Source of the DNA: Dictyostelium discoideum
Lineage: Eukaryota
DNA: 64,000 nt
NCBI GenBank assembly: GCA_000004695.1
Contig: CM000151.3
Location: forward strand, 3,008,001-3,072,000
Direction of reading: 5' to 3'
A program made the translations under genes and the position numbers. Of the stretch, positions 1 to 15,876 are shown one piece after another. The notes under the pieces were generated by a model. That model worked only from the letters and a program-made list of their open reading frames with translations. It had not been told where the DNA came from and did not search any database. The first letter of the stretch is position 1; each line of letters opens with the position of its first letter.

Positions 1-341
1 TTAGTTTTAAATTATAATAAACTGAATACCTTACGAAAAAAAAGTGACATTGCGATTAATGGAATCATAAAAAAAAAAATTTGAAAAAAAAAAAAAAAAT
101 ATTAAAATAAATAAAAAAAAATAAATTAATAGTCGAAGATGGTGACATTAAACGATAAACTGGTTCTTTTCTAAAATTGTTCACTGTTATTTTTTTTTTT
201 TATTTTTTTTCATTTAATTCGTAACACAGTGTAAAAAATTAAAAATAAAAAATAAAAAATAATAAAAAATAAAAAAATAAAAAGTAAAAAATAAAAAAAA
301 ATAAAAAATAAAATATTTTAATAATACCCCCATTTGCATTG

Positions 342-375
<34 letters not shown>

Positions 376-448
376 GTACACGGGTTTTTTTTTTTTTTAA
401 CTTTTTCAATGGGTTATTTTTAAAAAAATTTGAAAAATAAAAAAAAAT

Positions 449-501
<53 letters not shown>

Positions 502-504
<3 letters not shown>

Positions 505-1103
505 ATAATTAAAAAAATTAATAATAGTTTTTCAAAATCAGAATTTACAAATAAATTAATTACAATAAAAAAATTGAATTATAAAGAAATTATTGAAAAA
601 ATAAAAAATGGATTATTTAATTTTCCGATATTCTCTATTTTATCAATATATTTTGCTCAATGTTTTTATGAATATTCATTGGAAGGAAGAAAGGATTTAC
701 AATGGATGCATGCCAACTTAAAATTTTTCGGAATTTATATACTCATTTCAACAGTTTTTTTCGTATTTGGATTTGTTTCATTAGGAAAATTAATTAAAGA
801 TTTAACAAAAATAATTAATGTTGGAAACGATTATAAAAAATATGATTTATATAATATTAAAAATAATAATAAAATTAATAAATACACAAAATTAATTTTA
901 AAAAAATTTAATATATCATTGGTTTTATATCGTAACCTTTTAATAATATTATTTGTAAAACTTTTAATAATTTCATTCTATAAAATTACAAAAGATAAAG
1001 GTGCAACTTTAATTAATCATGGTCAATATAATTTAATTGCATTTACAACTATAATGTTAATTTATTTAATTGGATTTTTATCTTGGTTTTTAATTTTTAA
1101 GTA

Positions 1104-1148
<45 letters not shown>

Positions 1149-3008
1149 TTAATAATACATAATAATAATAATTAAACATTAAATTATTTACTAATTTTTC
1201 ATTTTTTTTTTTTTATTTTTTTTATTTTTTTTTCATTTTTTATTTTTAATTTTTAATTTTTTTTTTTTTTTCATTTTTTTTATTTAAAAATAAAAAGAAA
1301 TTGGACAATTAAAAATACAATAATTAGATTATTTATTTTAATAATTTTAGTTTATATTTCATTTTCAATTAAAAATATATTTGTTAGTAAAAATTGGCCA
1401 ATTGGGATTGATGGTAAACAATTAAAGTTTAAAGATGAAAGTAGTGGTGGTGGTAAAGTTTGTGAAATTGAAACCAATTTTATAGCATGGCCATCATTTT
1501 TACCAAAAGGATCAACTAGAATTATTACAGGATCAAGTGAATGTCCAAGTGAAAGTGAACAGTTTTCAAGATTGAACAATGGTATTTTAACAATGGATAA
1601 TTGTTTTGAAGAGAATAAACAATATACATTATCACCAGTATTTTGGGAGGAACAAAAAAAGTTTGATACATTTACCAATGATTTTAAATATTATGAAAAA
1701 TTATTCAAAGGTAAAACACAAACACTTCAATATACTAAACCAGTTGAAATTAAACATGAAACTGTAATGGCAATTTGTGGTAATCAAACTGAAATTCATT
1801 ATCATAATATAAAGAATCAACAATTTTATCAAAGAACATTGAATAATTTCAATTCACCAAAGATTAAAGAACATGTGGATAAAGTTAAATTACCAAATCA
1901 TCCAGATGAAAAATATAATAAAAAACCAATCGATATTTTATTTTTAATGATTGATGCATTATCAAGAGCTCAATTTAAATCTGCAATGCCAAGTACTTTT
2001 GAAACTTTACAATCTATTCAAAATCAAGGTCATTCAAAGGTTTTTCAATTTTTTAGATATCATTCATTGAAACCATTTTCAGATCCAAATACAATGGCAA
2101 TGTATAATGGTTTTAATAGAGTTGGTTATGATGATATCGATTATGAAAATAATATTAATGATCAAGGTGGTATCGGTGGTGGTGGTGGTGGTGATGGTGA
2201 TTATCATCATGATGATACTAATACATTTACATGGGAAAAGAATCCAATGTTTTATCAATCATTTAGAAATGATTCATATGTTACAACTTGGGTGACTGGT
2301 TTATGTCAAGATTGGTTTCAACATTATTTAAAGATGGATAAGGAGGTAGGATCAGTAGATCATGAAATGGCATTACCATTCTGTTCACCACAATTACACC
2401 CACCAGAGAAACCATTTGGTATCTTTGAAGGTCCTTACTCTATACGTCGTCGTTGTTTAGGTGATAAACATGTTCATGAAACCATTTTTCAATATATCAA
2501 TCAATTTTGGGAAAACTATAAAGATGTTGGTAAAATATTACATACAACCTTTATGGATGGTCATGAAGGTACCAATGAAGTTATTCAAATTGCTGATAAA
2601 GGTTTTCAAAAGTTTTTAGATAAGGATTTAAGACCAAAACTAAATGATACCTTTTTAATTTTAGCCTCTGATCATGGTCAACATATGTCTGGTTATTATA
2701 TGTGGTCCAAAGGTGGTAAAATCGAAGTGGCAATGCCAATGCTCTATTTGGTCTTACCAAGTTGGTTCCTTGAAAAATACCCTCACCTCGAACAACAACT
2801 ATTGGAAAATGAAAATAAACTATCAACACCTTTCCAATTGTATGATACCATTAGAACACTTTCAACTTTTCCTGAATTTGGTGGTATCGATATGAAAGAT
2901 CCAAATGGTGTTCGTAATGATAATCAAAAAGGTTTTTTAGGTAAAATTCCTGATGATATAACTTGTGCTCAATTAGGCATACCACATGATTTTTGTGTTT
3001 GTAAATAA
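502..3008 (+). CDS. DUF229 / alkaline-phosphatase-superfamily (sulfatase-like) membrane protein, copy L. Two exons: 502..1100 (multi-TM N-terminal region) and 1328..3008.
   Basis: Long ORF carrying the DALSR and ILASDHGQH motifs typical of DUF229/AP-like cores. The coding-like ORF stays open upstream of 1572 back to an acceptor AG at 1326-1327. There is a GTAAGT donor at 1101 after a hydrophobic 200-aa ORF. The phases are compatible (2+1). Joining the two exons is an inference. Confidence 0.55.
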
Positions 3009-3145
3009 AAATAAAAAATAAAAATAAAAATTTATTTATTTAAAGATATAATTAGTTTCTTGTTATTCGTTTTACTTTTTTTTTTATTTTTTTTTATTTT
3101 TTTTATTATTTAAAATTAATGATAAAAAATTTAATAGTAACTCTT

Positions 3146-3183
<38 letters not shown>

Positions 3184-12602: not shown

Positions 12603-12640
<38 letters not shown>

Positions 12641-12777
12641 AAGAGTTACTATTAAATTTTTTATCATTAATTTTAAATAATAAAAAAAATAAAAAAAAAT
12701 AAAAAAAAAAGTAAAACGAATAACAAGAAACTAATTATATCTTTAAATAAATAAATTTTTATTTTTATTTTTTATTT

Positions 12778-14637
12778 TTATTTACAAACACAAAAATCAT
12801 GTGGTATGCCTAATTGAGCACAAGTTATATCATCAGGAATTTTACCTAAAAAACCTTTTTGATTATCATTACGAACACCATTTGGATCTTTCATATCGAT
12901 ACCACCAAATTCAGGAAAAGTTGAAAGTGTTCTAATGGTATCATACAATTGGAAAGGTGTTGATAGTTTATTTTCATTTTCCAATAGTTGTTGTTCGAGG
13001 TGAGGGTATTTTTCAAGGAACCAACTTGGTAAGACCAAATAGAGCATTGGCATTGCCACTTCGATTTTACCACCTTTGGACCACATATAATAACCAGACA
13101 TATGTTGACCATGATCAGAGGCTAAAATTAAAAAGGTATCATTTAGTTTTGGTCTTAAATCCTTATCTAAAAACTTTTGAAAACCTTTATCAGCAATTTG
13201 AATAACTTCATTGGTACCTTCATGACCATCCATAAAGGTTGTATGTAATATTTTACCAACATCTTTATAGTTTTCCCAAAATTGATTGATATATTGAAAA
13301 ATGGTTTCATGAACATGTTTATCACCTAAACAACGACGACGTATAGAGTAAGGACCTTCAAAGATACCAAATGGTTTCTCTGGTGGGTGTAATTGTGGTG
13401 AACAGAATGGTAATGCCATTTCATGATCTACTGATCCTACCTCCTTATCCATCTTTAAATAATGTTGAAACCAATCTTGACATAAACCAGTCACCCAAGT
13501 TGTAACATATGAATCATTTCTAAATGATTGATAAAACATTGGATTCTTTTCCCATGTAAATGTATTAGTATCATCATGATGATAATCACCATCACCACCA
13601 CCACCACCACCGATACCACCTTGATCATTAATATTATTTTCATAATCGATATCATCATAACCAACTCTATTAAAACCATTATACATTGCCATTGTATTTG
13701 GATCTGAAAATGGTTTCAATGAATGATATCTAAAAAATTGAAAAACCTTTGAATGACCTTGATTTTGAATAGATTGTAAAGTTTCAAAAGTACTTGGCAT
13801 TGCAGATTTAAATTGAGCTCTTGATAATGCATCAATCATTAAAAATAAAATATCGATTGGTTTTTTATTATATTTTTCATCTGGATGATTTGGTAATTTA
13901 ACTTTATCCACATGTTCTTTAATCTTTGGTGAATTGAAATTATTCAATGTTCTTTGATAAAATTGTTGATTCTTTATATTATGATAATGAATTTCAGTTT
14001 GATTACCACAAATTGCCATTACAGTTTCATGTTTAATTTCAACTGGTTTAGTATATTGAAGTGTTTGTGTTTTACCTTTGAATAATTTTTCATAATATTT
14101 AAAATCATTGGTAAATGTATCAAACTTTTTTTGTTCCTCCCAAAATACTGGTGATAATGTATATTGTTTATTCTCTTCAAAACAATTATCCATTGTTAAA
14201 ATACCATTGTTCAATCTTGAAAACTGTTCACTTTCACTTGGACATTCACTTGATCCTGTAATAATTCTAGTTGATCCTTTTGGTAAAAATGATGGCCATG
14301 CTATAAAATTGGTTTCAATTTCACAAACTTTACCACCACCACTACTTTCATCTTTAAACTTTAATTGTTTACCATCAATCCCAATTGGCCAATTTTTACT
14401 AACAAATATATTTTTAATTGAAAATGAAATATAAACTAAAATTATTAAAATAAATAATCTAATTATTGTATTTTTAATTGTCCAATTTCTTTTTATTTTT
14501 AAATAAAAAAAATGAAAAAAAAAAAAAAATTAAAAATTAAAAATAAAAAATGAAAAAAAAATAAAAAAAATAAAAAAAAAAAAATGAAAAATTAGTAAAT
14601 AATTTAATGTTTAATTATTATTATTATGTATTATTAA

Positions 14638-14682
<45 letters not shown>

Positions 14683-15281
14683 TACTTAAAAATTAAAAAC
14701 CAAGATAAAAATCCAATTAAATAAATTAACATTATAGTTGTAAATGCAATTAAATTATATTGACCATGATTAATTAAAGTTGCACCTTTATCTTTTGTAA
14801 TTTTATAGAATGAAATTATTAAAAGTTTTACAAATAATATTATTAAAAGGTTACGATATAAAACCAATGATATATTAAATTTTTTTAAAATTAATTTTGT
14901 GTATTTATTAATTTTATTATTATTTTTAATATTATATAAATCATATTTTTTATAATCGTTTCCAACATTAATTATTTTTGTTAAATCTTTAATTAATTTT
15001 CCTAATGAAACAAATCCAAATACGAAAAAAACTGTTGAAATGAGTATATAAATTCCGAAAAATTTTAAGTTGGCATGCATCCATTGTAAATCCTTTCTTC
15101 CTTCCAATGAATATTCATAAAAACATTGAGCAAAATATATTGATAAAATAGAGAATATCGGAAAATTAAATAATCCATTTTTTATTTTTTCAATAATTTC
15201 TTTATAATTCAATTTTTTTATTGTAATTAATTTATTTGTAAATTCTGATTTTGAAAAACTATTATTAATTTTTTTAATTAT

Positions 15282-15284
<3 letters not shown>
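12778..15284 (-). CDS. DUF229 / alkaline-phosphatase-like membrane protein, copy R. Exons 14686..15284 and 12778..14458.
   Basis: Exact mirror of 502..3008. Confidence 0.55.
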
Positions 15285-15337
<53 letters not shown>

Positions 15338-15410
15338 ATTTTTTTTTATTTTTCAAATTTTTTTAAAAATAACCCATTGAAAAAGTTAAAAAAAAAAAAA
15401 ACCCGTGTAC

Positions 15411-15444
<34 letters not shown>

Positions 15445-15876
15445 CAATGCAAATGGGGGTATTATTAAAATATTTTATTTTTTATTTTTTTTTATTTTTT
15501 ACTTTTTATTTTTTTATTTTTTATTATTTTTTATTTTTTATTTTTAATTTTTTACACTGTGTTACGAATTAAATGAAAAAAAATAAAAAAAAAAAATAAC
15601 AGTGAACAATTTTAGAAAAGAACCAGTTTATCGTTTAATGTCACCATCTTCGACTATTAATTTATTTTTTTTTATTTATTTTAATATTTTTTTTTTTTTT
15701 TTCAAATTTTTTTTTTTATGATTCCATTAATCGCAATGTCACTTTTTTTTCGTAAGGTATTCAGTTTATTATAATTTAAAACTAAAAAGATTTTTTTTTT
15801 TTTAAAAAAAATGCTTCTTCATTTTGTGACATTCAATATAACCATGCTCCATAAAAGTGGGACCCTTCACAAATCT

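Follow-up and report, generated by a model that had tools for sequence, protein, structure and literature searches.

A long palindrome around a unique spacer

The DNA analyzed here is a stretch of 64,000 nucleotides (nt) of chromosome 2 of Dictyostelium discoideum (contig CM000151.3, positions 3,008,001 to 3,072,000; hereafter the window), which contains a long palindrome with a short unique spacer and, at its centre, a broken gene of the BB_PF family. In a base-by-base test of the window, position i was complementary to position 15786 − i for all i from 1 to 7703, with 0 mismatches. A preliminary description made from the letters alone had proposed a self-comparison, and self-BLAST of the window gave a single inverted match of 7703 bp with 100% identity and none of similar size elsewhere. 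The symmetry first breaks at the pair 7704/8082 (A/A), the very place where that description had put a sharp boundary (7703/8083 paired, 7704/8082 not). Its claim that 1–7703 is the exact mirror of 8083–15786 stood as to exactness, whereas the right end had to be moved to 15785 (7703 nt), because 15786 pairs with the base just left of the window.

Accordingly defined, the visible part of the left arm (copy 1, native orientation) occupies positions 1–7703 (chr2:3,008,001–3,015,703) and is the reverse complement of 8083–15785. The spacer lies at 7704–8082. The part of the right arm that is mirrored within the window (copy 2, inverted) occupies 8083–15785 and is the exact mirror of 1–7703, and copy 2 continues from 15786 to 64000, where its mirror lies left of the window according to a comparison locus, the position of carA, and published coordinates, as described below. 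Of the two arms, the window covers 7.7 kb on the left and 55.9 kb on the right.

Ten mirrored pairs of open reading frames (ORFs) of at least 80 amino acids (aa) had coordinates summing to 15786, against the five pairs noted at first. The runs A50 at 4266–4315 and T50 at 11471–11520 mirror each other at the positions originally given for them, and four further long homopolymer pairs, including A57/T57, A47/T47, and T41/A41, are also mirrored exactly. A perfect 7.7-kb inverted repeat cannot have arisen by chance. On the other hand, complementary mirrored pairs within the spacer (57/189) are at chance level. The spacer of 379 bp has a G + C content of 31%, compared with ca. 21% for the window, and is ordinary coding sequence, neither filler nor N. 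On the forward strand, it carries approximately codons 76–202 of the BB_PF gene, continues the left arm as native sequence, and would be the loop of the fold-back considered below.

The BB_PF gene at the centre and the genes of the arms

BB_PF is a beta-barrel pore-forming domain. The break lies within a gene encoding this domain (the junction gene), and both copies of the gene are truncated. Copy 1 (7478–8125, forward strand) begins in the left arm, runs through the entire spacer, and ends after 43 nt of the right arm. It encodes a 215-aa chimera, in which the BB_PF protein is cut after residue 202 and extended by a 13-aa tail from the antisense of its own 5′ region, and this 215-aa product was identical to UniParc entry P0006. 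Copy 2 (8308–8006, reverse strand) encodes 100 aa, consisting of 75 native residues and 25 aa from the spacer antisense; only its first 75 residues are in common with copy 1, and no Pfam match was found in it.

The cluster of junction proteins comprised a 251-aa orthologue of Dictyostelium dimigraforme, three proteins from long-read assemblies of D. discoideum, a 250-aa Logan protein, and the 215-aa UniParc entry. Three D. discoideum assemblies carry the intact 250-aa allele, as do Logan assemblies from several runs. The intact alleles agree with the window up to residue 202 and then continue with IFHAAHRNNLVV, whereas the window continues with KLETFSCSLRINF and a stop codon. The match to the Pfam BB_PF profile (PF18063) spans profile positions 19–170 of 204 in copy 1, compared with 19–203 in the intact 250-aa protein P0007. 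Thus truncated in both arms, this BB_PF paralogue has no intact copy in the AX4 sequence examined.

The junction gene is the fourth member of a local group. Three further BB_PF paralogues are located in the left arm at ca. 3105–4209 (reverse strand), 4756–5754 (forward strand), and 6131–7092 (reverse strand), and are mirrored at 8694–12681. PF18063 was detected on the ORFs 3658–4206, 4756–5337, 5461–5751, 6134–6532, and 6538–7092, with colinear gene calls in three duplication-free comparison loci (L001, L002, and L003). L003 is from D. discoideum (GCA_054883475.1, contig JBTAPE010000001.1), where the junction gene lies at ca. 3.019 Mb. A DUF229 gene is found at 430–3008 on the forward strand (mirrored at 12778–15356), with a match to PF02995 on its ORF 1572–3005; a DUF229 gene of 769–773 aa occupies the corresponding place in L002 and L003.

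Correspondence to the chromosome 2 duplication of AX3/AX4

The object in the window is already known: it is the inversion point of the 2 × 752.6-kb inverted duplication on chromosome 2 of D. discoideum AX3/AX4. The duplication has been placed on chromosome DDB0232429 at 2263132–3015703 and repeated at 3016083–3768654 (PMC8386026, PMC5052037). These coordinates give two copies of 752,572 bp each and a gap of exactly 379 bp, which is the length of the spacer, and when window position 7703 is set to 3,015,703, the window begins at chr2:3,008,001, which equals 47 × 64,000 + 1 and falls on a 64-kb tile boundary. The arm length of 752,572 bp used here is taken from the published coordinates, and the window covers only part of both arms.

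We located carA, encoding the cyclic AMP receptor 1 (cAR1), by tblastn with a cAR1 query. It occupies 58091–59409 on the forward strand in two exons (58091–58393 and 58531–59409; 99–100% identity), and the database protein P0008, named Cyclic AMP receptor 1 of D. discoideum, was 100% identical to the carA product of the window. The gene is within the right arm and thereby inside the duplicated segment, so that the window holds the copy in the inverted arm; it lies ca. 50.2 kb right of the palindrome centre, and its start is 49.8 kb right of the right-arm copy of the junction gene. The name carA-1 is used in the literature. The preliminary description had referred to the AX3/AX4 duplication, proposed its central junction for this locus, and put carA about 50 kb to the right; the identical 379-bp gap and the position of carA bear out both proposals. 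Our locus and the AX3/AX4 duplication are alike in organism, 379-bp gap, carA content, and absence from AX2 and wild isolates, and no difference was found. The duplication is reportedly described in Glockner et al. 2002, Eichinger et al. 2005, and Bloomfield et al. 2008.

The locus in duplication-free genomes

The left arm (1–7703) was colinear with L003 2619–10226, and the differences were nearly all in homopolymer lengths. Over window positions 1–8084, L003 differed in homopolymer lengths, one scrambled low-complexity patch (367–477), and one substitution. Together with the 100% identity of cAR1, this agreement places the window in the NC4 laboratory lineage of D. discoideum. L003 itself is probably the AX2-214 genome of PMC12745789, because the sequence is near-identical and the coordinate almost equal.

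Long A/T homopolymers at 84, 454–476, 1106, 4266, 4462, 4672, and 7004, and at their mirrors, are 2–22 nt longer in the reference than in the Nanopore-based L003 (for example, A50 vs. A33 and A57 vs. A37). This length gap is most likely an effect of the sequencing technology, not biology. The patch at 367–477 (mirror 15309–15419) is of low complexity and did not align cleanly to L003, with many apparent substitutions beside indels; it is either a true strain difference or an assembly error in the window or in L003.

L003 1–10226 also aligned in reverse to window 18403–8083, and L003 1–2618, which in the unduplicated genome precedes window position 1, corresponds in reverse complement to window 15786–18403. 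Therefore, the 2.6 kb before window position 1 is the mirror of 15786–18403. With carA mirrored elsewhere, this agrees with the earlier suggestion that everything right of 15786 is continuing arm. In JBTAPG010000035.1, a contig of duplication-free D. discoideum, carA is single (3,006,358–3,007,686, reverse strand) and lies 53 kb left of the junction gene (3,060,810, forward strand), which is the mirror image of the arrangement in the window. The spacer continues colinearly in L003, L002, and L001, and the intact proteins P0003, P0004, P0005, and P0007 are likewise colinear with it.

Perfect identity of arms about a unique spacer would also be seen if the palindrome were old and of natural origin and gene conversion between the arms had kept them identical, as it does on the human Y chromosome. 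However, the locus is single-copy, uninverted, and intact in the AX2-like assembly, two other D. discoideum isolates, and D. dimigraforme, and the junction gene is unbroken in these duplication-free loci. An old, conversion-maintained palindrome is thus virtually out of the question here. Sex-chromosome palindromes, as generally known, resemble the AX4 palindrome in their long arms, unique spacer, and near-perfect arm identity, but they are millions of years old and kept by conversion, whereas the AX4 palindrome is decades old and absent from close relatives. The duplication is not present in AX2-214, wild isolates, or sister species, and every other genome is without it.

Reality and age of the duplication

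By array comparative genomic hybridization (array CGH), all Ax3/Ax4 stocks have two copies of the segment, unlike Ax2 (Bloomfield et al. 2008). Hi-C work describes the inverted duplication in AX4, and whole-genome synteny comparisons also show it. The duplication has been dated to the origin of the axenic strain, with an age of ca. 30 years as of 2009. With the published mutation rates, which amount per site and generation to 2.47e-11 for substitutions and 4.93e-11 for small indels, ca. 1 difference between the full arms, and ca. 0.01 in the visible 7.7 kb, would be expected per 10,000 generations. Zero divergence is therefore expected, because the event is decades old (ca. 50 years) and the mutation rate is very low.

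The same identity is no independent evidence, because a shotgun assembly could not have separated the two copies. Equal homopolymers of 50–57 nt in both copies would also be the outcome of a pooled consensus placed twice, and the perfect identity of the copies is presumably in part a property of assembling such a repeat. We therefore considered whether the palindrome exists in the reference only, for example through a single-copy region mirrored by mistake. In favour of this, the copies are identical even in the lengths of the A50 and A57 runs, and exact look-ups of the junction ORFs gave no contig (see below). However, the array CGH doubling covers exactly this interval, Hi-C and synteny agree with it, and the joint is built like that of a real rearrangement and interrupts a gene of which relatives carry an intact allele. 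An assembly artefact is thus highly improbable. The preliminary description had offered a very recent event or an assembly artefact as alternatives; the former agrees with the origin in the axenic strain and the absence from AX2-214, wild isolates, and sister species, and the latter is contradicted by array CGH, Hi-C, and synteny.

A single novel joint at 8082–8084

L003 matches the window through 8084; after the shared CA, L003 continues with TTTTCCATGCAGC and the window with AATTGGAAACC. The native continuation in L003, L002, and L001 departs from the window exactly after 8084. The native allele reads CA followed by TTTTCC, whereas the window reads CA followed by AATTGG, the left-arm end in reverse complement. 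Written across the joint, the native sequence is GATCTTTA CA TTTTCCATGC and the window sequence GATCTTTA CA AATTGGAAACC. The sole novel joint accordingly carries a 2-bp microhomology, CA at 8083–8084 on the forward strand, whose partner is TG at 7702–7703. No inserted bases were found at the joint, and the native sequence past the break has no further complementarity to the left-arm end and no pre-existing long inverted repeat. A longer microhomology was considered and rejected: up to 6 nt with one mismatch would be compatible with the D. dimigraforme sequence, but the D. discoideum allele gives 2 nt only.

As judged from these alignments, the left arm and spacer represent the original chromosome, and the only new joint is at 8082–8084. 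It links the top strand, within the BB_PF gene, to the reverse complement of sequence 381 bp upstream. The boundary at 7703/7704 is no breakpoint and merely marks the point at which copying of the inverted arm started. The base-level anatomy of the joint, namely its native side, the 2-bp microhomology, and the BB_PF gene cut twice, is the sole and modest addition of this study to the known object.

Origin of the joint

The window joins a sequence head-to-head with its own reverse complement through a short unique spacer and a 2-bp homology, as in joints of the fold-back or breakage-fusion-bridge type. We consider it highly probable that the window contains the centre of the AX3/AX4 duplication with a joint made by fold-back or template switching, which would have started a breakage-fusion-bridge-type rearrangement. 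The event would have begun with a chromosome break or the collapse of a replication fork inside the BB_PF gene. The exposed 3′ end may then have annealed 381 bp upstream at the 2-bp microhomology, using its own strand in a fold-back, or the sister or lagging template in a U-turn of the fork. Extension leftwards along the arm would have produced a head-to-head palindromic chromosome, with the 379 bp from the annealing point to the break left over as the unique loop. The palindromic chromosome would have been resolved ca. 752.6 kb away, outside the window, giving a history of the breakage-fusion-bridge type. A breakage-fusion-bridge cycle has already been proposed for the duplication in the literature. 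Its distal border has been described as containing rDNA-palindrome (ribosomal DNA, telomere-type) and DIRS (centromere-type) sequence, together with gaps that only HAPPY markers span. A clean 2-bp joint with a 379-bp loop, in a gene intact in AX2, is better explained by a single event of the fold-back type than by recombination between repeats.

Three points weigh against this reading. The mechanism is reconstructed from the sequence of one joint only. The 2-bp microhomology fits fold-back priming, template switching at a fork, and sister-chromatid end-joining equally well. Moreover, exact-product look-ups of the junction ORFs (215 aa and 100 aa) matched no contig; this outcome is expected and of little weight, since short-read assembly graphs merge inverted arms into one and their contigs end where arm and spacer meet. 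Look-ups of two long ORFs of the window likewise gave no hit.

The end-joining route deserves separate mention. In a classical breakage-fusion-bridge cycle, the broken chromatid would be replicated, the sister ends would be resected to 8084 and 7702/7703, and non-homologous end-joining would ligate them head to head. A clean joint with 2-bp microhomology and no templated insertion is typical of end-joining, and the breakage-fusion-bridge cycle is the published proposal; the sequence gives no separation of this route from fold-back priming. However, sister end-joining requires two independent ends trimmed 381 bp apart, not one end. We regard it as unlikely, while keeping it as a genuine competitor of the fold-back or template-switch origin.

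Fold-back inversions and breakage-fusion-bridge cycles in maize, yeast, and human tumours, as generally known, have in common with the AX4 locus the head-to-head self-joint, a short unique spacer, a microhomology of zero to a few bp, and a step in copy number. Unlike the amplification ladders of those systems, the AX4 product is a stable, haploid-viable chromosome from a single cycle, with arms of 752.6 kb and with rDNA-palindrome and DIRS sequence at the other end. The human constitutional inverted duplication (inv dup del type) with a disomic spacer, also general knowledge, is similar in that inverted arms are split by a short single-copy native segment. It usually has a terminal deletion and often arises between pre-existing inverted low-copy repeats, whereas only 2 bp are present in AX4.

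Several features that might accompany a break were sought in the sequence. The proposed telomere repeats had no match in the window or in any comparison locus. No transfer RNA (tRNA) genes were found in the window, and therefore no retrotransposon target of this kind lies near the break. The idea that the break occurred beside an ancestral chromosome end was dropped, as the AX2-like contig runs ca. 598 kb past the junction gene.

Instability of the centre

Array CGH revealed loss of sequence at the inversion point in AX3 sublines (Bloomfield et al. 2008). After the v2.5 coordinates of that study were corrected by 13,569 bp, the ORF described there as "especially unstable", DDB0217158 (3,002,504), falls in the 379-bp spacer, and the left arm ends at DDB0217157 (3,002,134). 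DDB0217158 is lost in the sublines KAx3 and NC4A2. We modelled the single-stranded centre (100 bp per arm with the 379-nt loop) and obtained a predicted fold of −142 kcal/mol with z = −22.8. With a loop as long as 379 nt, extrusion of a cruciform from duplex DNA is unlikely. A hairpin on the single-stranded template during replication would be the more plausible source of instability.

This instability also bears on whether the spacer is secondary. An earlier palindrome might have been centred more distally or been more symmetric, and a later asymmetric deletion, through cleavage of a hairpin or cruciform and end-joining, would have removed the sequence from 8084 to the mirror of 7703. Stocks of the AX3 lineage keep losing sequence at the inversion point, a long perfect stem is available, and, according to Bloomfield et al., ancestral sequence may already be missing at this point from the sequenced Ax4. 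However, one event suffices for the observed structure, and there is no trace of a second joint, the left arm and spacer being uninterrupted native sequence. A secondary origin of the spacer is improbable compared with the direct fold-back or template-switch joint.

The distal flank

L001, L002, and L003 were colinear to ca. 0.5 kb past the stop codon of the junction gene and had nothing in common beyond it (window from 8126 onward against locus positions 10,750–21,000). In three Dictyostelium genomes, a conserved synteny block ends with the junction gene. Three of the four long-read contigs end 11–27 kb distal to it, and only the AX2-like contig continues. In Ax2-214 and Ax2(M), array-CGH features end at or near the junction gene (Bloomfield et al. 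2008), and the chromosomes of D. firmibasis are split in this region. We tentatively suggest that the inversion centre lies at a recurrently fragile boundary of chromosome 2 and not at a random place, a possibility that we hold to be somewhat doubtful. If it is true, a specific element just distal to the BB_PF gene would make the chromosome break or forks collapse, and in AX4 this element may be lost or have moved elsewhere.

The distal part of L003 contained two ORFs of note. One, at 18870–19487 on the forward strand and ca. 8 kb distal to the breakpoint, encodes 206 aa with a CCHC zinc knuckle (retroelement gag-like). The other, at 14999–15631 on the forward strand and ca. 4 kb distal, encodes 211 aa and had exact matches in Logan contigs only. 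Its UniProt-derived relative is 96% identical and has an extra internal segment of ca. 74 residues that remained unaligned; another contig carries a paralogue of 66% identity. In AX4, the exact 211-aa gene may therefore be missing or unannotated. The other distal ORFs of L003 gave no Pfam match.

Other repeats in the window

The other long self-matches of the window are unrelated to the palindrome: they consist of (AAT)n microsatellites and of short paralogous segments, of which there are two. (AAT)n/(ATT)n microsatellites of 100–200 bp, typical of this genome, are located at 16970–17185, 19835–20060, 44660–44815, 48345–48560, 50470–50675, and 63030–63275, and cross-match in self-BLAST. Direct repeats of ca. 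89% identity pair 23778–24163 with 27403–27785 (388 bp) and 28164–28379 with 29412–29628 (217 bp). The first copy of the former overlaps the ORF 23805–24629, and both pairs look like local duplications of gene segments.

Implications

For users of the AX4 reference, it is established that ca. 750 kb of genes, including carA, are doubled, that reads cannot be placed uniquely in them, and that the centre is unstable in sublines. The mapping ambiguity foreseen in the preliminary description is met in practice, and groups routinely mask one copy (PMC8386026, PMC5052037). The joint sequence offers a simple assay for the AX3/AX4 lineage by polymerase chain reaction. It also reveals a BB_PF paralogue of which both AX4 copies are disrupted.

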